Shown here piece by piece: positions 14,486 through 22,270 of a stretch of 64,000 nt of DNA. The stretch is from NCBI GenBank assembly GCA_963806755.1, contig CAWDZR010000016.1:247249-311248 (forward strand). The letters run 5' to 3'. The notes under the pieces are model-generated. The model worked only from the letters and a program-made list of their open reading frames with translations. It had not been told where the DNA came from and searched no databases. Position numbers and translations under genes: made by a program. Source of the stretch: an uncultured Gemmatimonadales bacterium. Its GTDB lineage: Bacteria; Gemmatimonadota; Gemmatimonadetes; Gemmatimonadales; JACORV01. Within the stretch, counting starts at the first letter, position 1. Each line of letters opens with the position of its first letter.

Positions 14486-15202
14486 CTAGCCACTCACCGT
14501 TGCCCTCAGCTCCACCTGCCCCACCTGCGGCCTGCGGAACAGATCCCGCCATCCGTCTTTCCGCCGCACCACCAGCACCACGTCGCCCACCGGCTCCGGC
14601 TCGAGTCCAAGCAGGGTCACGAACAGCACGTCCGGAACGCGCGGCGGCAGGCTCACCCGCCAGGCGTGCCCGTGCCACTCGACCGGCATGGCGCCTCCGC
14701 CGGCACGGCGCCAGGCGCCGCGCCGCAGCGGACGGTCCACGAAGACGTCGTCCTCCACCTTGGTCACGTCGGGCGCGAGCCGCTCCCCGTCCCGGAAGAA
14801 CAGCGGGTCGAAGGGCTCGCCTTCCTGGCGGGCGTAGTTGGCCTCGACCGCGTCGTCGAAGTCCTCGAGCGCGGCGGCGTCGGCGCGCCACTCGAGGTGG
14901 TGCCGGATCTCGTGCGTGAGCGTCTCCCACGCCTCCTGCCGCCAGTCGAATCCCGGCGCTGCGGCGGCGAGCGCCGCGAACGACCCGTAGTGCAGGAGCA
15001 CGGAGGAACGCAGCTCGGCCCCGCCCTCGCCGGGCGCGCCGAAGCTGTGGGGGACGCACTCGCCCAGCGTGTACACGCCGGCCCTGAGCGGGTGCGGTAC
15101 GGTCTTGGGGGTCACCTCGACGCCGGCGATGCCGGCCTGGAATTCGGCCGGCAGCTCGCGCGTCATCTCGCGGATCATGGCCTCGAAGTCGCGGCGCCGC
15201 AT
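14486..15202 (-). CDS. Zincin-like metallopeptidase-domain protein (HExxH) with uncharacterised C-terminal half
   Basis: ORF 14486..15202. The sequence contains ETLTHEIRHHLEW. The N-terminal roughly 130 aa resemble the small 'metallopeptidase family protein' class. Confidence 0.65.
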   Translation of the reverse strand: MRRRDFEAMIREMTRELPAEFQAGIAGVEVTPKTVPHPLRAGVYTLGECVPHSFGAPGEGGAELRSSVLLHYGSFAALAAAAPGFDWRQEAWETLTHEIRHHLEWRADAAALEDFDDAVEANYARQEGEPFDPLFFRDGERLAPDVTKVEDDVFVDRPLRRGAWRRAGGGAMPVEWHGHAWRVSLPPRVPDVLFVTLLGLEPEPVGDVVLVVRRKDGWRDLFRRPQVGQVELRATVSG

Positions 15203-15229
15203 CGCCCTTTCGTGCCGGCGGGCCGGCCG

Positions 15230-16685
15230 TCAGGCCAGCGCCGCCGCCACCCGCTCGACGAGCGGGGCGAAGGCCAGGTCGCGGCCGAGCACCGTCGTCG
15301 CCAGGCGGGCGGCGTCGTCGCGCTGGCCGCGCGCGAACAGCTCCCGCAGCCACCCGCCGGAGCGGCGGTCCAGGAACCAGTCCTCGCCGAAGCGGTCGCG
15401 CAGGGAGGCGGCGAGCAGCGCCTCGAGCTGCCAGGCCCGCAGGTAGCGCGCGGCGTAGAAGGCGTCGTCGAGGTCCAGCAGCGCGTCTTCGGGCGGGTAG
15501 CGGAAGCCCGTCGCCTCGCTGAGGATGGGCGCGTAGCGGCGGGCGCCCTCCTCGAGCGTGGGCGCCGCGTGCAGCTCCACCTCGTAGCGCAGCTTGGCCG
15601 CGTACCGGCGCAGGATCGCCAGCAGGGCGAACGCCTGTGATCGCGCGAACGCCCGCTCGCGCGCGCCGGAGAGGCCCACGTACCGCCGCAGCCACGAGGG
15701 CTCCGCCACCATGTGCTCGAACAGCATCGCGAAGGCCTCGGTCACCGAGTTGTCGCCCAGCCAGCGATGCTCGAAGGGAAGGCCGGGCGCGGTGTTGGCG
15801 AAGTGCTGCGCGTGCCCCAGCTCGTGCCAGAAGGCACGGTAGTCGGCCTGCCCGCCGAACGGCCGGATCACCAGGTACACCTCGTCCGGCACCCGGGCGG
15901 GCGAGCAGAACGCGCGGGAGCGCTTGCGCTCGCGGTCGTCGGTGTCGTAGCGGATGCGGCCGTCCGCCTCGGCGTCGAGCCCCATGGCGGAGAGCTGCTT
16001 GCGCGCGATGGCCAGGATCTCGCCGCCGGGGAAGAACTCGTCGTAGCCCGCGCCGCGGAACAGATACGCGGCGTCGGCGCGTTCGGCCTCGCCGGGCGCG
16101 ATCCCGAGCTCGCGTGCCAGCTCCTCCCGGAGCGCACCGTCGTACAGGGCGGCGGTGGCGGCGAGAAAGTCCCCACAGCTCGCGGCCAGCGCCGCGAGGT
16201 CCACGCCCGACAGCCGCGAGCGCGCGGCCACCGTGTCGCCGAGCCCGAGGCCGGCGAGCAGGCGGCGCTCGAGGGTCAGCCGCTCCCGGCGCAGGGCCGA
16301 GGGCTCCGCCAGCACCGCGCGGCGCGCGGCGTCGATCGCCAGGCGGCGCTGGCGGTCCGGCTCGTTCGCCGTCACGATGGCCGCGCGCTGGTAGGGCAGC
16401 GTCTCACCGCCGGGCAGCGTGATCCGGGCCTCCGCCTCCCACGCGTGCAGCCGGTCGTCGAGCGCCGCCGCGGCGCGGCCCACGCGGTTATCCACCACCC
16501 ACTCGAGCAGCGCGCGGTGGCCGCGCGCCGTCTCGACCGCCCGTCGTCGGCCAGGTCGGGATAGCGGCCGAAGATCTCCGCGAAATGCGACTCGGCCGCG
16601 AGGCCGGCGCCGGTGCGGTAGCTCTCGCGCCCCAGCTCCGCGGCACATGCGCCTCCCCGCGCCGGCGCAGCTCCTCGACTGTCAT
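15230..16685 (-). pseudogene. M3/oligoendopeptidase-F-like zinc metallopeptidase; reading frame broken twice near the 5' end (sequence error or pseudogene)
   Basis: The main body is ORF 15230..16648, with FWHELGHAQH. The N-terminus is split over three frames: [14 protein letters not shown] (from ATG 16685), then [36 protein letters not shown], then [18 protein letters not shown]. Frame changes lie near 16644 and 16540. Confidence 0.75.
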
Positions 16686-18020
16686 CCCTCGAGGCGCTCG
16701 GCGAGGTAGGCGGCCAGGCCGCGCGGCGTCCACCCGCTCCTGCGCCAGCGTGTCGCGGTGCCGCACCGTGACCGTCCCGTCCTGCGTGGTCTGGCCGTCC
16801 ACGGTGATCGCGAACGGCGTGCCCGCCTCGTCCTGGCGGCGGTAGCGGCGCCCGATCGAGCCGCCGTCGTCGTAGAAGGCCGTGAACCGACCGCGCAGGT
16901 CGTCGTAGATCTTCTGGGCGATCTCCGGCATCCCGTCCTTCTTCACCAGCGGCAGCACCGCCGCCTTGATCGGCGCCAGCGCCGGCTTGAGGCGCAGCAC
17001 CACCCGCGTCTCGCCCTCCACCTGCCTCCTCGTCGTACGCGTCGCACAGCAGCGCCAGCGCCGTGCGGTCCGCGCCCACCGACGTCTCCACGATGTACGG
17101 GAGGTAGCGCTCGTTCCGCTCCTGGTCGAAGTACTCGAGCTTCTTGCCCGACGCCTGCTGGTGCCGCGACAGGTCGAAGTCCGTGCGGTTGTGGATCCCC
17201 TCGAACTCGTTCCACCCGAACGGGAACTCGTACTCGATGTCGTACGCCGCCTTGGCGTAGTGCGCCAGCTCGTTCGCCTCGTGCTGGTGGAAGCGCAGCC
17301 GCTCCGGCTCGCAGCCCGAGCCCCACGTGCCACTGCATCCGCTCGTTCCGCCAGAACTCGAACCACTCCTCGTCCGTGCCCGGCCGCACGAAGAACTGCA
17401 TCTCCATCTGCTCGAACTCGCGGGTGCGGAAGATGAAGTTCCCCGGCGTGATCTCGTTGCGGAACGCCTTGCCGATCTGCGCGATGCCGAACGGGATCTT
17501 CTGCCGCGAGCCCTGCAGCACGTTGAGGTAGTTGACGTAGATCCCCTGCGCCGTCTCCGGCCGCAGGTAGACCACCGCCGCGTCCTCCTCGACCGGGCCC
17601 ATGAACGTCTTGAACATCAGGTTGAACATCCGCGGCGCGGTGAGCGAGCCGCGCGTCCCGCACGCCGGGCACTGCCCGTCGGGCTGCCCCGGCGTCCCCT
17701 TGATCCGCGGGTCGTCGGCCCGGAAGCGCTGCTTGCAGTGCTTGCAGTCCACCAGCGGATCGGTGAAGCCCGCCACGTGGCCCGACGCCTCCCACACCTT
17801 CGGCGACATCAGGATGCCCGCGTCGAGCCCCTCGATGTCGTCGCGCGCGTGGACCATCGCGCTTCCACCACCGGTCCTTGATGTTGCGCTTCAGCTCGAC
17901 GCCCAGCGGGCCGTAGTCCCAGACCGAGCCGAGCCCGCCGTAGATCTCCGAGGACTGAAAGACGAAGCCGCGCCGCTTCGCCAGCGACACCAGCTTCTCC
18001 ATGCGATCGTTGTCCGCCAT
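16682..18020 (-). pseudogene. glyQS: Glycine--tRNA ligase (homodimeric GlyQS type), frame broken about 4 times (probably sequence errors)
   Basis: The conserved GlyRS sequence is spread over three frames. [52 protein letters not shown] is in ORF 16488..18158. [37 protein letters not shown] is in ORF 16943..17857. [47 protein letters not shown] is in the frame of ORF 16372..17091. [30 protein letters not shown] returns to the first frame, and the tail [11 protein letters not shown] lies in another frame. Shifts are near 17858, 17315, 17027 and 16716. Confidence 0.85.
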
Positions 18021-18229: not shown

Positions 18230-18508
18230 ATGGCGATACAGGGCGCTCAGCGCACGCCCACGGCGCGCCCCGATGTAGTCCTCAGGCGAGTGGGATCCGA
18301 GTGGGTCCTGTACGACGCCGCCAGGGAACGCGCCCACGTCTTGAACCTCACCGCCGCCGTCATCTGGACTTACTGCGACGGCACGTTCCTGCCGTCGGAC
18401 ATCGCGGACGCGATCGCCCGGGAAGTGCCCGGTCTCGACGTGGCGCGCATCGGCACCGACATCCACGACGTGCTGCGCCGGTTCGCCGACGAGGGGCTGC
18501 TGCAATAG
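18230..18508 (+). CDS. PqqD-family peptide chaperone (RiPP-recognition-element-like), 92 aa
   Basis: In-frame part of ORF 18047..18508 from ATG 18230. PDVVLRRVGSEWVLYDAARERAHVLNLTAAVIWTYCDGTFLPSDIADAIAREVPGLDVARIGTDIHDVLRRFADEGLL follows the PqqD pattern (x-vl-d..sg..h.LN.tA..iW..cDG..t..ei...l...). Confidence 0.85.
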   Translation: MAIQGAQRTPTARPDVVLRRVGSEWVLYDAARERAHVLNLTAAVIWTYCDGTFLPSDIADAIAREVPGLDVARIGTDIHDVLRRFADEGLLQ

Positions 18509-19368
18509 CGCTCCGGCGGCGGATCGCCGTCGCGCCCCTGGTCCTGGAGTTCGCGAGCGACGACGGGATCGCCGCCCGGGCGCTGGAGGCCCTGTACCAC
18601 GCGGCGCCGGCCAGCACCGCTCCACCGACCCTGCGCTACGAGCTCCGGCGCGCCGGGCCGCGGCCGGGGGACGGATACGAGGCGGCGAGTCCCGCGCAGC
18701 CGGTGTTCGGGCCCACGACCCTCGCGGAGGCCTGGGCCTTCCTCGAATGGCGCGCGACCGAGGACGTGCTCAACGCCGCGACGCCGGACTGCGTGTTCAT
18801 GCATGCGGCGGCGGCGGTGCTGGGCGGGCGCATGGTGCTGCTGGTGGGCGACGCCGGGGCGGGCAAGTCCACGCTCCTCGCTCACCTGCTGTTGCGGGGA
18901 CATGGAGTACTCGGCGACGACGTGGTGCGATTCGCAACGCGCGACGGGTTGTTCTCGGCCGTCGGGCGCTCGGTCAAGCTGGATGATAAGGCGTTGCGCG
19001 GCATGCCGTTGATTGCGGCGCTGTGTGCCGCGGGGACCATCGGAACGCTTCTTGCCGCAGGATGCTACTACGTGAGCCCTGCAGCGGTGCGGAGAGACTG
19101 GCAAGCCGAGGCGGCGCGGCCTTGGGGGGTCGTGCTGCTCGAGGCCTCGTCGCGTGACGGGGCCAGCGGCGTGCGGCGGGCGAGCGCGGGCGAGGCCGCG
19201 GTCCGGTTCGCGCAGCGGCTGCTCGGGGGCGCCGGCCTGCCGGCGCCGGCGCGGGCCGAGGCGACGGTGCGCCTGCTGGAGAGCCTGGCGGACGTGGCGG
19301 CGTATCGCGCCGTCGGCCGCGATCCGGCGCGCGTCGCGGAGGCGCTGGAACGGGAGGCGATGACATGA
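18505..19368 (+). CDS. HPr-kinase-related P-loop kinase (HprK C-terminal-domain-like); start codon unresolved
   Basis: Frame of ORF 18193..19368. The sequence FMHAAAAVLGGRMVLLVGDAGAGKSTLLAHLLLRGHGVLGDDVVRF parallels HprK (GxSGxGKS..L..rGH.LvaDD). Walker A is at 18847-18873. There is no ATG, GTG or TTG between 18193 and 18800. ATA 18505 overlaps the PqqD stop (ATAG). About 287 aa if it starts there. Confidence 0.75.
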   Translation: MALRRRIAVAPLVLEFASDDGIAARALEALYHAAPASTAPPTLRYELRRAGPRPGDGYEAASPAQPVFGPTTLAEAWAFLEWRATEDVLNAATPDCVFMHAAAAVLGGRMVLLVGDAGAGKSTLLAHLLLRGHGVLGDDVVRFATRDGLFSAVGRSVKLDDKALRGMPLIAALCAAGTIGTLLAAGCYYVSPAAVRRDWQAEAARPWGVVLLEASSRDGASGVRRASAGEAAVRFAQRLLGGAGLPAPARAEATVRLLESLADVAAYRAVGRDPARVAEALEREAMT

Positions 19369-19892
19369 GCCTGCGCACCCTGGGCCTGCTGTCGGGCGGC
19401 GTCAGCCGCCGCGAGATGCTCGCGGCGCTGGCGCGCTGGAGCGTCCCGACGGTATTGACCATGACGCTGATCACGCGCGAGGCGCGGGCCGCGGCCTCCT
19501 GCCCGCCGTGCACCAAGAAGACCGGCGGCGTGTGCCGCGCGTGCACGATGAACCAGATCCTCAACTGCCAGTGCGAGCCGTGCCTCGGGGCGCCGTACTG
19601 TGCCAACGGCGCACGCGCGTCCGTGTCGCGGCCGGGGGCGATGACGGCGCCGTCGAGCGGGCTCGTCCCCGGCGGGACGCCGTCGCCGCTGTCGCCGTCC
19701 AACCCGGACCTGCTGAGCCCGTACTTCCGCACGCTGCGCAACCAGCCCGCGTTCTCGGGGCAGAACCCATTCGACCGCAGGCCCGGTGCCTTCGGCGGAT
19801 CCGGACTCCTCGGGGTGCCAGCCGATACGGGGCTGCGCTCGCGGGGTGGCCTGTACGATCGGCTGCGCCCTGATGCCCGGAGGCCGTTCTGA
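19365..19892 (+). CDS. Orphan cysteine-rich protein with twin-arginine-type leader and P/G/S-rich tail (175 aa)
   Basis: ORF 19365..19892. The ATG overlaps the kinase stop (ATGA). GC3 is very high. The leader is MSLRTLGLLSGGVSRREMLAALARWSVPTVLTMTLITREARA/AAS. The core is C-x2-C-x7-C-x2-C-x7-C-x-C-x2-C-x5-C (nt 19500-19601). The tail is low-complexity and rich in proline. Confidence 0.75.
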   Translation: MSLRTLGLLSGGVSRREMLAALARWSVPTVLTMTLITREARAAASCPPCTKKTGGVCRACTMNQILNCQCEPCLGAPYCANGARASVSRPGAMTAPSSGLVPGGTPSPLSPSNPDLLSPYFRTLRNQPAFSGQNPFDRRPGAFGGSGLLGVPADTGLRSRGGLYDRLRPDARRPF

Positions 19893-19963
19893 GCCTGCTC
19901 CCGTCCGCCCCTGATGCCCGGCGCGCCACGCTGCCGGGCACGCACCAGCTGCACCTGCGCGAC

Positions 19964-22270
19964 GTGCTGCGCGTCCTGCTGCTCCATTGGAAGATCGTCG
20001 GCCTGGTCACGCTCCTGGTCGCGGTGGGGGCCTTCTCCTCGGCCCGGCGGGCCGTCCCGCGCTACCGCTCGGACGCCTCCTTCCAGGTGGGCTCGAAGAA
20101 GTACGCCGCGCCGCGCCTCGACGAGCCGCAGGTCAACGAGCTCGACATCAAGACCGATCCGGTCCTGTCCGAAGCCCTGATCCTCAAGACGCAGAACCTG
20201 GCGCTGGCGGTGGCGGACTCGCTCGGCCTGCAGCTCCGGCTGCTCGAGGACCGGGTGCCCCGCGGCAGCGTGCTCGACGACGCGCACGTGGCCCTGGCGG
20301 CGCCCAACGACACGTTCCTGCTCTACCTCAAGGGCCCGGCCGGGTGGGAAGTGCGGGACGCGCACGGGCGGGTGCTGGACGCGGGGACGTACGACACGCC
20401 GGTGCGGGACTCGGCGCGGGGGTTCGCCTTCACGGTCCACCCCTCCGCCGTGCCGCGGGTGCTCCGCTTCGCGATCATCTCGCCGGTGGCGGCCGCCAAC
20501 GAGGTGCGCGGCGGGCTGGGGTTCGACATCCAGGAGGGGACGACGGTCGTGGGGGCGTACTACGACGGCGCCGACCCCTCCCTCGCCCCCGACATCCTGA
20601 ACGAGGCGCTCGCCGTCCTGCGGTGGACCGGCGTGGCGCGCCTGCAGGAGATGTCGGTGCAGCGCGAGGCGTTCCTCAAGAGCTCGCTCGACGAGGCGGG
20701 GCATCAGTACCGGCAGGCGCTGGCGGCGCTCCAGCAGTACAAGGAGGCGGAGCACACCACCGACCTCACGGCCGAAGAGCAGGCCCTGCTCAACTCGGTG
20801 CAGATGTTCGACCGCGAGAAGCAGCAGGAACGGGAGGACCTCGCCCTGCTGCAAAGCATCCTCGACCAGTCGAGCGAGGGGAACATCACGCTCGAGATGC
20901 TCAACCGGCTGGCGGCGATGCCGAACATCGACAAGAACACGGCCATCGCCTTCCAGATGCAGAACCTGCTGAAGCTGTACGACGACCGCCGCAGCCTCAC
21001 CGCGGGCACGCTCGGCCTGCGGGAGGACAACCCGCAGGTCCAGGCGCTCGACCAGCGGATCGTGCAGGCCGGGCGGGCGCTGCGGCAGGCCGCGCAGGCC
21101 AGCGTCCAGAGCATGCAGGCGGACATCGCGGCCCTCGACCAGCGCATCGGCACGCTCCGTACCCAGCTCGCGACCTATCCGGGCAAGGAGACGCAGATCG
21201 GGCAGCTGGAGCTGGACGCGGCCCTGTACAACGACACCTACCGCTATCTGCTGACCCAGCTCCAGGCCGCGCAGATCAGCTCGGCCACGATCGCGCCCTA
21301 TGTGGACGTGGTCGAATCGGCGACGGTGGCCGCGCCGATCGGCGTGAGCACGCGCCAGAAGGTGACGATCGGGCTGCTGGTGGGCCTGCTGCTGGGGGTG
21401 GTGGCGGCGTTCTTCCTCGAGTACCTCGACCAGACGATCAAGTCGGCGGTGGACGTGGAGCGGGCGCTGGAGACCCCGGTGCTCGGCCTCATCCCGATCG
21501 ATCCGCGCAGCGAGCGCGACGGGCGGCGCGGCGGCCGCCGCCGGGCGGTCATTCCGCTCATCACCAGCGCCGCCCCCGACGACCCGACGAGCGAGGCGTA
21601 CCGGGCCCTGCGCACCAACGTCACGTTCGTGAGCGCCGAGGAGCGGGCGCTGCAGCTTGTGTGCATCACGAGCCCGGGGCCCGGCGAGGGGAAGAGCACG
21701 ACCGCGGCCAACCTGGCCATCACGCTGGCGCAGCAGGGGACGCACACCCTGCTGGTGGACGCGGACCTGCGGCGGCCCATCGTGCACAAGGCCTTCAACC
21801 TCGTGCAGGAGCCAGGGCTCACCGACATTCTCGTGGGCACGGCCACCCTGCGCGAGGCCGTGCGGCCCAACGTGATCCCCAACCTCGACGTGCTCCCGGG
21901 AGGCGCGCTGCCGCCCAACCCCTCCGAGCTGCTGGGCTCCGAGGCGATGCGCCGCCTGACCGCGGAGCTGCGGACGCAGTACCAGAGCGTCATCTTCGAC
22001 ACGCCGCCGGCGCTGGCCGTGACCGATGCCACGGTGCTCGGGGCGGGCGCGGACGGCGTCATCCTCGTGCTCCGCGCCGGCGAGACCGACGAGCTCGCGG
22101 CCCAGCGCGCGGTCGAGGTGTTCCGCCGCGTGCAGGTGCGCATCGCGGGCACGGTCCTGAACGCCGTCGAGAAGCAGCGGGTGCGCTACTACCAGTACTA
22201 CAACTACAGCCGGGAGTCGCCGCAGGGGCGGCTGGCGGGGTGGCGGCACAAGATCGCGAGCTGGCTGTAG
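19964..22270 (+). CDS. Polysaccharide co-polymerase fused to BY-kinase (GumC/Wzc-type tyrosine autokinase)
   Basis: ORF 19964..22270 (GTG). Features: N-terminal TM plus a Wzz-like coiled-coil region, a second TM, Walker A SPGPGEGKSTTAANLA, Walker A' LLVDADLRRP, VIFDTPP, and a C-terminal tyrosine cluster RYYQYYNYS. Confidence 0.9.
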   Translation: MLRVLLLHWKIVGLVTLLVAVGAFSSARRAVPRYRSDASFQVGSKKYAAPRLDEPQVNELDIKTDPVLSEALILKTQNLALAVADSLGLQLRLLEDRVPRGSVLDDAHVALAAPNDTFLLYLKGPAGWEVRDAHGRVLDAGTYDTPVRDSARGFAFTVHPSAVPRVLRFAIISPVAAANEVRGGLGFDIQEGTTVVGAYYDGADPSLAPDILNEALAVLRWTGVARLQEMSVQREAFLKSSLDEAGHQYRQALAALQQYKEAEHTTDLTAEEQALLNSVQMFDREKQQEREDLALLQSILDQSSEGNITLEMLNRLAAMPNIDKNTAIAFQMQNLLKLYDDRRSLTAGTLGLREDNPQVQALDQRIVQAGRALRQAAQASVQSMQADIAALDQRIGTLRTQLATYPGKETQIGQLELDAALYNDTYRYLLTQLQAAQISSATIAPYVDVVESATVAAPIGVSTRQKVTIGLLVGLLLGVVAAFFLEYLDQTIKSAVDVERALETPVLGLIPIDPRSERDGRRGGRRRAVIPLITSAAPDDPTSEAYRALRTNVTFVSAEERALQLVCITSPGPGEGKSTTAANLAITLAQQGTHTLLVDADLRRPIVHKAFNLVQEPGLTDILVGTATLREAVRPNVIPNLDVLPGGALPPNPSELLGSEAMRRLTAELRTQYQSVIFDTPPALAVTDATVLGAGADGVILVLRAGETDELAAQRAVEVFRRVQVRIAGTVLNAVEKQRVRYYQYYNYSRESPQGRLAGWRHKIASWL

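Follow-up and report, generated by a model that had tools for sequence, protein, structure and literature searches.

The window analysed here (the whole stretch of DNA, 64,000 nucleotides) encodes on its forward strand a PqqD-family protein, an HPr-kinase-like P-loop kinase, a small Cys-rich protein and a Wzc-type polysaccharide co-polymerase/tyrosine autokinase. The PqqD gene (18230..18508, +), starting with ATG at 18230 and ending with TAG at 18506-18508, corresponds to a 92-aa peptide-binding protein of the RRE type which is assigned to PF05402 at 6.3e-10, above the Pfam cut-off, and additionally shows weak matches to lasso PqqD and ScmD (1.2e-4). For the kinase (18505..19368, +; about 285 aa), matches to PF07475 (4.5e-6) and TIGR04352 (2.1e-14) were obtained, both below the respective cut-offs. 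Its start codon is uncertain, as a canonical start is absent upstream of the conserved N-terminus, while H100, the P-loop G115-x2-G-x-G-K121 (GxxGxGKS/T) and G137-D-D139 are invariant. The kinase stop codon TGA (19366-19368) and the start codon ATG of the Cys-rich gene (19365..19892, +) overlap in an ATGA junction (19365..19368, +) that is found identically in loci L001, L003 and L024. The Wzc-type protein (19964..22270, +; at least 768 aa) matches TIGR01007 at 1.2e-53 and possesses Wzz, GNVR and AAA_31 domains. The conserved N-terminal QLHLRDVL is encoded upstream of the GTG at 19964, and the true start of this gene is probably also located upstream, near 19940. Scanning the locus for promoters and terminators was uninformative in this DNA of 72% GC. 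The GlyRS gene of the window is split over three frames.

From the sequence and its translation, the open reading frame at 19365-19892 (+) indeed encodes the 175 aa given in the preliminary description, comprising a leader, an 8-Cys module, a disordered tail and a C-terminal motif. Likewise, the earlier view that high GC3 marks it as a real coding frame holds true, with GC3 = 0.92 versus GC2 = 0.65 over the gene and GC3 = 0.95 in those sliding windows that begin at positions 19350 and 19500. Searching with the protein revealed 202 homologues at E ≤ 0.01, the top non-identical one at 2.7e-83 with 100% coverage, and eight pairwise comparisons of the codons for leader and Cys module gave 136 synonymous versus 156 amino-acid-changing differences. 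Judged by this conservation, the frame is a real gene, far beyond chance. A shadow ORF or an artefact of an indel-prone assembly might be suspected from the nearby assembly problems, including the disrupted GlyRS gene, and from the two adjacent genes lacking canonical start codons. However, the 202 homologues have collinear ends, codons are turned over synonymously while amino acids are retained at the high GC3 already mentioned, and the gene is called at the same position in independent assemblies. These conservation data effectively refute the assumption that no gene is present, the probability of which we regard as virtually nil. The more specific possibility, considered from the beginning, of an indel-made fragment of a larger gene was rejected as well, since the gene starts and stops collinearly with its homologues and has a matching length (about 150-190 aa), despite frameshifts close by in the assembly.

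The gene product had been introduced as an orphan without recognizable family. The latter is correct, as searches of Pfam, NCBIfam, PDB and folds all ended without a match, whereas the term orphan is wrong for a conserved single-copy family present in 16 GTDB species of Gemmatimonadales. With more than 200 full-length homologues, every one from this order, the term only applies insofar as the family is not annotated and has no relatives outside the Gemmatimonadales. In a profile search of 1.84 billion representative proteins, 18 representatives of the family and no relatives beyond it were retrieved. Scanning Pfam, NCBIfam and PADLOC with the complete protein and with its leader and Cys fragments did not assign a family, the sole match, to TIGR04117, lacking significance. 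Profile searching of the PDB yielded as its best result a spurious antibody match at E = 1, and Foldseek comparison of the modelled protein with the PDB nothing below E = 7. Accordingly, the profile and structure searches suggested in the preliminary description recovered no described family or fold. P0016 and P0066, each listed for a contig of 44,258 bp, were suspected to be paralogues but turned out to stem from different samples with one copy each. Overall, the gene is single-copy and strictly syntenic and shows a housekeeping-like distribution, with precursor duplications being absent.

The 8-Cys module (C46-C79; 19500..19601, +) can be described by the pattern CPPC-x7-CxxC-x7-CxCEPC-LGxPY-C, and the translation of residues 46-79 agrees with the CPPC-x7-CRAC-x7-CQCEPC-x5-C noted at first. 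Conservation of the frame and its Cys spacing in relatives, defined beforehand as decisive, is present. All eight Cys are invariant in 113 sequences, together with P47, P48, E71, P72, L74, G75 and P77. In the AF2 model, this putative metal- or cofactor-binding module comprises only a hairpin (strands 50-53 and 56-59) and a short helix (62-66), at moderate confidence (pLDDT about 72-79). The isolated module did not retrieve anything from Pfam and NCBIfam even at E ≤ 10, and similarity to zinc ribbon, DnaJ CR, HiPIP, ferredoxin or metallothionein was not found by Pfam, NCBIfam, PDB profile or Foldseek searches. The module is followed by a variable P/G/A/S/R-rich linker (19602..19847, +), which extends over 57-103 aa across the family and harbours the conserved islands NPF and F-G, and by the motif G-L-Y-D-R-L-R-P-D-x-R-R-P (19848..19886, +), conserved across the family, after which the protein terminates as RRPF. 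Hence, characterizing this tail as low-complexity is only partially appropriate. It is compositionally biased and P/G/S-rich (fractions of P.15, G.13, A.12, S.11 and R.105) and modelled at pLDDT values below 50, but it is not featureless, as N134-P135-F136, F143-G144 and G162-L-Y-D-R-L-R-P-D...R-R-P174 are conserved within it. In the C-terminal motif, L163 and R166 do not vary among 113 sequences, and conservation is 90% or higher at L167, R168 and R172.

Within the leader (residues 1-45; 19365..19499, +), per-column counts over 113 sequences highlight S14-R15-R16-E-M-L, a core L-A-R24-W25-x-V-P28-T29-V30 and A42-x-A44-S45. The codons AGC CGC CGC at 19404-19412 specify S14-R15-R16, as initially read. 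The S/T-R-R-x-hydrophobic-hydrophobic motif of Tat substrates is thus present near the N-terminus, in the form [ST]14-R15-R16-E17-[ML]18-[LV]19 in 112 of the 113 sequences, and the leader as a whole is nearly invariant (SRRE-ML-x2-LARW-S/T-VPTV), with R24, W25, P28, T29, V30 and L35 being identical in all 113. The invariant R24 splits the hydrophobic stretch, and the remaining uncharged segment W25-T37, exactly 13 residues before R38 with a Kyte-Doolittle mean of 1.25, is borderline for Tat by simple rules. Values for the h-region of 1.25-1.33 are within the range calculated for the signals of TorA and SufI from E. coli. Further downstream, the conserved A42-x-A44 precedes S45-C46. In the AF2 model, residues 15-44 form a single long helix. 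None of the curated Tat-signal models, including TIGR01409, was listed at E up to 10 for the protein and its N-terminal fragments. Consequently, resemblance to a Tat signal applies to the layout of RR, hydrophobic stretch and AxA, seen in 112/113 sequences, but does not extend to a match with a curated model. A lipoprotein was also considered, with a lipobox [LVI][ASTVI][GAS]-C ahead of C46. At position -3, 64 sequences have Ala and 33 have Lys, and due to the latter this reading was dropped. For the element R-W-x-x-P-x-V of the leader, a resemblance to the N-terminus of PqqA peptides was considered; the PqqA family was not matched at E ≤ 10, and this candidate was rejected. The leader shows 62% identity, compared to 28% for the N-terminus (signal or anchor) of the neighbouring penicillin amidase in the same four genomes. 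Being far more conserved than a generic signal, it argues for a sequence-specific binding partner.

A clue to this partner comes from Proteobacteria, where a protein combining an HprK-like and a PqqD domain is widespread; its NCBI annotation is just 'PqqD family protein'. The Gemmatimonadales kinase aligns with the kinase half of this fusion (hhalign 97.6%, E 3.4e-12, 215 columns) and the PqqD protein with its C-terminal domain (hhalign 97.3%, E 1.9e-11). This Rosetta-stone evidence shows that PqqD and kinase, as judged by homology, represent a split form of the proteobacterial fusion, with the modules in opposite order. In all of five loci checked by hand, the fusion gene has upstream of it a small ORF whose leader follows [ST]RRxxL...YxAP...AxA and whose tail is made of Ser-rich repeats, and about 70 of 73 metagenome loci show the fusion paired with a small adjacent ORF having a twin-arginine leader and Ser-rich repeat tail. 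The proteobacterial cassette consists of an ECF sigma factor, an anti-sigma factor, an S8 peptidase, the small protein with Tat leader and Ser repeats, and the HprK-like::PqqD fusion. Its S8 peptidase bears the same leader as the small protein and is related to the leader peptidase QhpE at 3e-21, while the proteobacterial leaders match the curated Tat-target family TIGR02811 at 2.6e-6. Like the Gemmatimonadales operon, the cassette places homologous kinase and PqqD modules beside a small protein with an RR leader, and its clients share with the Cys-rich protein an AxA site, a tail biased towards S/G/P/R and, at the C-terminus, a short motif that is conserved. On the other hand, the proteobacterial clients lack a Cys module and their cassettes Wzc, and genes for S8 peptidase and ECF sigma/anti-sigma factors are absent from the Gemmatimonadales operon and the syntenic loci. 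Homology between the proteobacterial leader consensus [ST]RRxxLxRLGLAxGxxYxAP and LARW-x-VPTV of the Gemmatimonadales was undetectable. When the ORFs of the window were compared with a profile of eight proteobacterial leaders, the Cys-rich protein was not ranked, and in the reverse direction the Gemmatimonadales leader profile reached only 3.9 bits with the proteobacterial leaders. As profile tests failed both ways, leader homology was discarded and only a shared layout is claimed, both leader sets having only a loose pattern, formulated afterwards, in common. Still, with the homologous kinase::PqqD fusion almost always encoded beside a small twin-arginine-leader protein, the earlier suggestion that the leader is recognized by the adjacent PqqD protein gains indirect support. 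Of the two alternatives originally offered, a Tat signal or a leader read by PqqD, each is thus partly supported, and the evidence points to a combination of both.

A quite different location would follow if the protein were a cytoplasmic zinc-binding one, e.g., a regulator or adaptor of both kinases having an amphipathic or protein-binding helix at its N-terminus. Two CxxC pairs flanking a predicted beta-hairpin followed by a helix would fit a zinc-knuckle or treble-clef-like arrangement, R24 and R38 interrupt the hydrophobic stretch, and Tat models are not matched. However, this is difficult to reconcile with the RR-hydrophobic-AxA layout in 112/113 sequences, with the canonical Tat signals of the analogous proteobacterial clients matching a Tat-target family and with the Foldseek result, which does not include any zinc finger. 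Hence, we consider a cytoplasmic zinc protein improbable.

The order PqqD, HprK-like kinase, Cys-rich gene and Wzc is kept at every fetched locus where the contig covers it, with Wzc directly 3' of the Cys-rich gene wherever the contig extends far enough (about 20 of the fetched loci). In some loci, the calls for both genes even overlap (10471 versus 10486 in L001 and 10495 versus 10498 in L023). The wider surroundings are likewise similar, with GlyRS upstream in all loci and PurA downstream, in some after extra inserted genes. As all Cys-rich loci belong to one order and share this wider synteny, adjacency could partly reflect vertical inheritance. Taken at face value, it would suggest an ordinary exported or signal-anchored periplasmic partner of Wzc, stabilized by four disulfides, whose N-terminal helix packs on the Wzc transmembrane helices or is simply a lineage-fixed signal, with PqqD and kinase acting elsewhere. 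The single long helix predicted for residues 15-44 and the RR ahead of the hydrophobic stretch, in accordance with the positive-inside rule, are compatible with this role, and TIGR04352, the curated family closest to the kinase, is associated with exopolysaccharide loci and not with any known peptide. On the other hand, a mere Wzc partner would explain neither the pairing of fusion and twin-arginine proteins in about 70/73 loci, all without Wzc, nor the ATGA coupling to the kinase gene, and the conserved A42-x-A44-S45 resembles a cleavage site more than an anchor. On the whole, this role appears rather unlikely.

Similar combinations of kinase and PqqD proteins are encountered in the biosynthesis of peptide natural products. 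In lasso clusters with a PqqD-type RRE, HPr-kinase homologues phosphorylate a Ser side chain of ribosomal precursor peptides (PMC8498205). Such paeninodin-type clusters resemble the Gemmatimonadales operon in having an HPr-kinase-type kinase and a PqqD/RRE protein (the PqqD-like B1) beside a ribosomal substrate with N-terminal leader. In contrast, the lasso cyclase (the Asn-synthetase-like C protein) and the B2 protease are absent from the Gemmatimonadales operon and the syntenic loci, and the C-terminal Ser modified in paeninodin is lacking in the Cys-rich protein with its terminal RRPF. The latter also differs from a lasso precursor by its 175 aa, twin-arginine-type leader and 8-Cys domain, and its gene is syntenic and single-copy across the order, whereas lasso biosynthetic clusters occur sporadically. 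The best curated match of the kinase, TIGR04352 ('HprK-related kinase A'), reaches 53.3 bits (2.1e-14) versus a cut-off of 200 and covers model positions 63-165 only; TIGR04353 is the PqqD-family partner model of TIGR04352. As in this pair and in ScmC/ScmD, an HprK-like and a PqqD-like protein thus occur together in the Gemmatimonadales. The PqqD protein matches ScmD with 22 bits versus a cut-off of 100 (E 1.2e-4), and ScmC was matched in kinase homologues only, graded as weak in the one context table grading this match. Unlike in the SynChlorMet cassette, the radical SAM proteins ScmE and ScmF are absent near the Gemmatimonadales operon and from syntenic loci.

Accordingly, a classical RiPP precursor has to be considered, from whose PqqD-bound leader a tailored Cys-rich peptide would later be cleaved and freed as a natural product. 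Pertinent to this are the RRE-type PqqD protein and tailoring-type kinase encoded immediately upstream, the matches of close kinase homologues to PF27840 (ScmC) and of PqqD to ScmD, the relationship of the proteobacterial S8 peptidase to QhpE, and a weak match of the leader to TIGR04117, 'Cys-Xaa-Xaa-Xaa repeat radical SAM target' (E 0.045-0.15). This last match is non-significant, however, and judging from the Pfam context of orthologous loci, neither the operon nor its conserved surroundings encode a cyclase, radical SAM enzyme, leader peptidase or exporter. Moreover, at 175 aa the protein is not short, the core would amount to 130 aa, about 80 of which belong to a variable linker, and the neighbours are GlyRS, Wzc and PurA. 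Together with the strict synteny and the housekeeping-like, single-copy distribution without precursor duplications, this gives the natural-product scenario only a slight chance.

Instead, we propose that the 175-aa protein may be a dedicated client of a leader-guided PqqD/kinase module, modified in the cytoplasm and then exported, a proposal that we consider evenly poised between right and wrong. Its N-terminal 45 residues would be a twin-arginine-type signal doubling as sequence-specific docking site for PqqD, which in turn would present the client to the HPr-kinase-like enzyme. With ATP as substrate, the latter would modify the client in the cytoplasm, most likely by Ser/Thr phosphorylation in the P/G/S/R-rich tail. 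As this modification would have to be finished before translocation, export would probably proceed via Tat, and the leader would be cut after A42-x-A44. The mature product would then be a compact 8-Cys knot, held by metal or disulfides, with a disordered tail ending in GLYDRLRPD-RRP. It would be made together with the Wzc-type co-polymerase/tyrosine kinase and may act on the periplasmic part of the latter. TorD, DmsD and NapD are 'proofreading' chaperones binding Tat signal peptides, and the predicted role of PqqD would be comparable to theirs, with a cytoplasmic protein binding a specific twin-arginine signal and holding the substrate until maturation. PqqD is, however, unrelated to these chaperones in fold and family, and maturation would be a kinase reaction instead of cofactor insertion. 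In a wider and more doubtful generalization, which we put forward only tentatively, the twin-arginine signal would serve as RRE dock and PqqD as a Tat 'holding' chaperone recruiting the kinase, and (poly)phosphorylated clients would be exported as secreted or periplasmic phosphoproteins. This would constitute a widespread undescribed pathway, with the modules fused in Alpha- and Betaproteobacteria and separate in Gemmatimonadales, where the client would add a unique 8-Cys domain and the link to a Wzc-type polysaccharide machinery. A literature search on the cassette, TIGR04352, ScmC or the combination of Tat with PqqD found nothing relevant.

If correct, the proposal would imply that RRE/PqqD domains and HPr-kinase homologues reach beyond peptide natural products into the maturation of exported proteins, with a Tat-type signal as the recognition element. 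Secreted phosphoproteins of bacteria would then arise by a new route, involving a chaperone for Tat substrates of a new kind. In addition, functions could be assigned to hundreds of genes labelled only 'PqqD family protein' and to an operon conserved order-wide beside a tyrosine autokinase in Gemmatimonadales, belonging to a phylum in which, to our knowledge, very few systems have been characterized. Should the model fail, a well-defined Cys-rich family of restricted taxonomic range would still be left, whose signal-like leader is unusually constrained. What speaks against the tail as the predicted site of phosphorylation is its Ser and Thr content of only 16%, compared to about 20-35% in most proteobacterial clients, and its lack of both Ser repeats and an invariant Ser. 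S-P dipeptides, finally, occur 239 times in the linkers versus 146 expected.

The Cys-rich protein of 175 aa is encoded on the plus strand at 19365-19892, and the features listed for it in the preliminary description are reproduced in detail: S14-R15-R16 is encoded by AGC-CGC-CGC at 19404-19412, residues 46-79 read exactly CPPC-x7-CRAC-x7-CQCEPC-x5-C, and the frame has a high GC3 (0.92 versus 0.65 for GC2). However, the protein can no longer be called an orphan, as 202 homologues were retrieved at E <= 0.01 from 5.8 billion proteins, the majority spanning 90-100% of the query (top non-identical match 2.7e-83), and when one genome per GTDB species was scanned by pattern, the gene turned up in 16 species, exclusively Gemmatimonadales or Gemmatimonadota MAGs. 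Among 1.84 billion cluster representatives, searched exhaustively by profile, there are only 18 members and nothing beyond the family. In agreement with the earlier failure to recognise a known family, neither a Pfam/NCBIfam model nor a solved or predicted structural relative was found, and the Cys-rich proteins are a compact, unnamed family restricted to one order. Within leader and Cys module, 136 synonymous versus 156 residue-changing codon differences in eight pairwise comparisons indicate conservation at the protein level. As the homologues are collinear from Met1 to stop, the ORF is not an indel fragment, and the probability of an artefact is practically negligible.

Upstream lie genes for a PqqD-family protein of 92 aa (18230-18508, plus strand; PF05402, 6.3e-10) and an HPr-kinase-like P-loop protein (about 18505-19368, plus strand), the latter matching PF07475 (4.5e-6) and TIGR04352, 'HprK-related kinase A' (2.1e-14), with neither score reaching its cut-off. 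The kinase family retains an invariant His, a GxxGxGK[ST] P-loop and a G-D-D motif, which we take to correspond to the nucleotide-binding and catalytic signature of HPrK/P. The stop codon of the kinase gene and the start codon of the Cys-rich gene overlap in an ATGA, and downstream follows a Wzc-type co-polymerase/tyrosine autokinase (TIGR01007, 1.2e-53). This order of PqqD, kinase, Cys-rich gene and Wzc is identical in all fetched loci wherever the contig reaches, with GlyRS upstream at every locus and PurA downstream, either directly or after inserted genes. By itself, adjacency supports a functional link only weakly, since the genomes represent one order with wider shared synteny. With a PqqD gene close by, a classical RiPP precursor might be considered, but cyclase, radical SAM enzyme, peptidase and exporter are all absent near the four-gene set in the fetched loci, and this reading appears improbable. 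The GlyRS gene of the window (minus strand, about 16722-18020) is spread over three frames with at least three frameshifts, compared with the intact 444-aa orthologue of a relative (L001), which points to assembly indel errors, a pseudogene of an essential gene being less likely. Canonical starts are likewise absent upstream of the conserved N-termini 'VLEFASDD' of the kinase and 'QLHLRDVL' of Wzc: at 18505-18545 and 19874-19964, respectively, neither ATG nor GTG nor TTG lies in frame shortly before them and only ATA, ATC or CTG are on offer, while the orthologues begin with GTG. In the NCBI annotation, the kinase is shortened to 221 aa.

The kinase's sole match in the plasmid database is a Shinella gene labelled 'PqqD family protein', which is a fusion of HprK-like and PqqD domains. 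In profile-profile comparisons, the Gemmatimonadales kinase matches the N-terminal half of the fusion (97.6%, E 3.4e-12, 215 columns) and the Gemmatimonadales PqqD its C-terminal domain (97.3%, E 1.9e-11). As each thus matches one half, the window genes are the split form of one fused protein, which argues for PqqD and kinase working together. The fusion family is large, with 554 members at E <= 0.001, among them proteins of Paracoccus, Rhodovulum, Yoonia, Falsiroseomonas and Limnobacter. In all five hand-inspected loci, a small protein is encoded immediately upstream of the fusion, and its canonical twin-arginine leader ([ST]RRxxLxRLGLAxGxxYxAPx[LM]...AxA) precedes Ser-rich repeats, for example, SRPSRP, SGGSGG and SRYSR. 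The fusion profile retrieved 80 loci from metagenomes, of which 73 had enough upstream sequence; in a screen by script with manual follow-up, a leader-bearing client adjoins the fusion in about 70 of these 73. The proteobacterial leaders match the curated Tat-target family TIGR02811 (2.6e-6). The complete cassette, with an ECF sigma/anti-sigma pair upstream, runs from these two genes via an S8 peptidase and the small Tat-leader Ser-repeat (SRP, SGG or SRYSR) protein to the fusion (L026, Shinella plasmid, NZ_OZ000533.1 5648-10011; L027, Paracoccus plasmid, NZ_CP034811.1 3583-7939; L028-L110). It is widespread in Proteobacteria and uncharacterised; a literature search found no paper on the cassette, TIGR04352 or ScmC/ScmD. 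The S8 peptidase, a distant relative of the leader peptidase QhpE (3e-21), has the clients' specialised twin-arginine leader, …RRxLLxR[LMI]G[LI]A…AY[AT][AT]P[AT]L…A[RH]AS, plus an S/G-rich linker (L026 6998-8335; L027 4990-6258; L030 4157-5548), so that the leader marks a set of proteins and not a single one.

As a class, therefore, the PqqD/kinase module regularly pairs with small proteins whose N-terminus is of the twin-arginine type, whose tail is biased and whose C-terminus bears a short conserved motif, and the Cys-rich protein is the same in architecture and equivalent in position. A profile of the Gemmatimonadales leaders scores only 3.9 bits against the Shinella client, by which homology of the leaders is not shown, and a profile of eight proteobacterial leaders left the Cys-rich protein unranked among the window ORFs. 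The loose pattern [ST]RR-x-hydrophobic-hydrophobic-x(2-14)-[WY]-x-[AVT]-P-x-hydrophobic fits both leader groups and, in the six-frame translation of the window, matches the Cys-rich ORF only, but is a mere lead because it was composed after both groups were seen. Divergent clients of the fusion (L087-L092, L095-L097, L105, L108, L109; several of these loci are human gut metagenome by title) end in '...GDRLRDTFNDALGGFRPDR(Y)', which loosely resembles the GLYDRLRPD-RRP end of the window protein, perhaps by chance.

In an alignment of 113 sequences, the N-terminus (residues 1-13) is variable, the leader (14-45) almost frozen ([ST]-R-R-E-[ML]-[LV]-x-x-L-A-R24-W25-[TS]-V-P28-T29-V30-[LV]-T-x-x-L35-x-x-R38-x-A-x-A42-x-A44-S45), and in the Cys module (46-79) the eight Cys, P47, P48, E71, P72, L74, G75 and P77 are invariant. 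A P/G/A/S/R-rich linker (80-161; length 57-103 aa) with the conserved islets N-P-F and F-G leads to the conserved end motif G-L-Y-D-R-L-R-P-D-x-R-R-P (162-174). The tail is non-repetitive and, at 16% S+T, less Ser-rich than the proteobacterial clients; S-P dipeptides are enriched (239 versus 146 expected), though in sequences that are not independent of one another. The AF2 model of the full protein is confident in no part (pLDDT 54.6); it has a helix spanning 15-44, strands 50-53 and 56-59 paired as a hairpin, and a second, short helix (62-66), the tail being disordered; modelled alone, the Cys module keeps this topology (pLDDT 64). In this predicted secondary structure, the order CxxC, hairpin, CxxC, helix resembles a zinc knuckle or treble clef, and the eight Cys may either bind a metal or form disulfides. 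A cytoplasmic zinc protein, set against an N-terminus of signal-like layout, has little probability.

This N-terminus, with its RR motif, 13 uncharged residues (Kyte-Doolittle mean 1.25) and a basic residue ahead of an AxA site, would fit a Tat signal, its hydrophobicity being near the values calculated for the signals of TorA and SufI from E. coli. Conservation of this degree would not be expected of a generic signal: in four genomes, the first 35 alignment columns of the neighbouring penicillin amidase are 28% identical versus 64% over the remainder, while in the same genomes the Cys-rich protein shows 62% in the leader, 72% in the Cys module and 28% in the tail. Such sequence-specific constraint is expected if a dedicated protein reads the leader, and the gene two positions upstream codes for a PqqD, which binds peptides. 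The Tat signal and the PqqD-read leader, previously proposed as alternatives, each hold in part and probably do not exclude one another. That the protein is simply a periplasmic or anchored Wzc partner, with PqqD and kinase acting elsewhere, would agree with the signal-like layout and the constant Wzc neighbour but, in view of the fused counterpart with its leader-bearing clients and of the ATGA overlap with the kinase gene, seems rather unlikely. The reading with the best support, at chances that we consider about even, is that the Cys-rich protein is the client of a leader-guided PqqD/kinase module. PqqD would read the leader and present the client to the kinase, the client would undergo a cytoplasmic modification, probably phosphorylation of its tail, before export and cleavage after A44, and the mature protein may act together with Wzc. 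As the kinase requires cytoplasmic ATP and both kinase and PqqD are without signal, any modification must precede export. Post-translational export, for example by Tat, would suit this order of events, and PqqD would have a 'hold until finished' function, analogous in logic to that of the signal-peptide chaperones TorD, DmsD and NapD.

The closest characterised precedent for the module is found in paeninodin-type lasso clusters, where an HPr-kinase homologue phosphorylates a Ser of the ribosomal precursor and a PqqD-type RRE is additionally encoded (PMC8498205). RRE, HPr-kinase homologue and Tat-type signal are each already known in kind; undescribed in the sources searched is their combination, in which a protein-sized client with a signal-like leader is conserved order-wide beside a tyrosine autokinase and has a fused counterpart widespread in Proteobacteria. 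The leader (19365-19502) also shows a weak, non-significant match (E 0.045-0.15) to NCBIfam TIGR04117, 'Cys-Xaa-Xaa-Xaa repeat radical SAM target protein', which together with the ScmC/ScmD matches of the neighbours is a hint that PqqD-associated systems may repeatedly involve Cys-rich peptides with signal-like leaders.

The surroundings of the four genes vary among the relatives. Between Wzc and PurA, four type-IV-pilin-like (N_methyl/PilX_N) genes plus a penicillin amidase are inserted in L003 (13013-19622) and L023 (13071-19601), and the amidase alone in L021 (3556-5949) and L024 (11781-14198); in the window, PurA directly follows Wzc, and pilin-like genes and amidase are absent there. Next to GlyRS, the window encodes a conserved 484-aa protein without Pfam match and a Zincin_1-like protein (14486-16648, minus strand). 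Both adjoin GlyRS in all relatives, and in L001, L003, L023 and L025 two or three tandem genes of ~90 aa lie beyond this pair.
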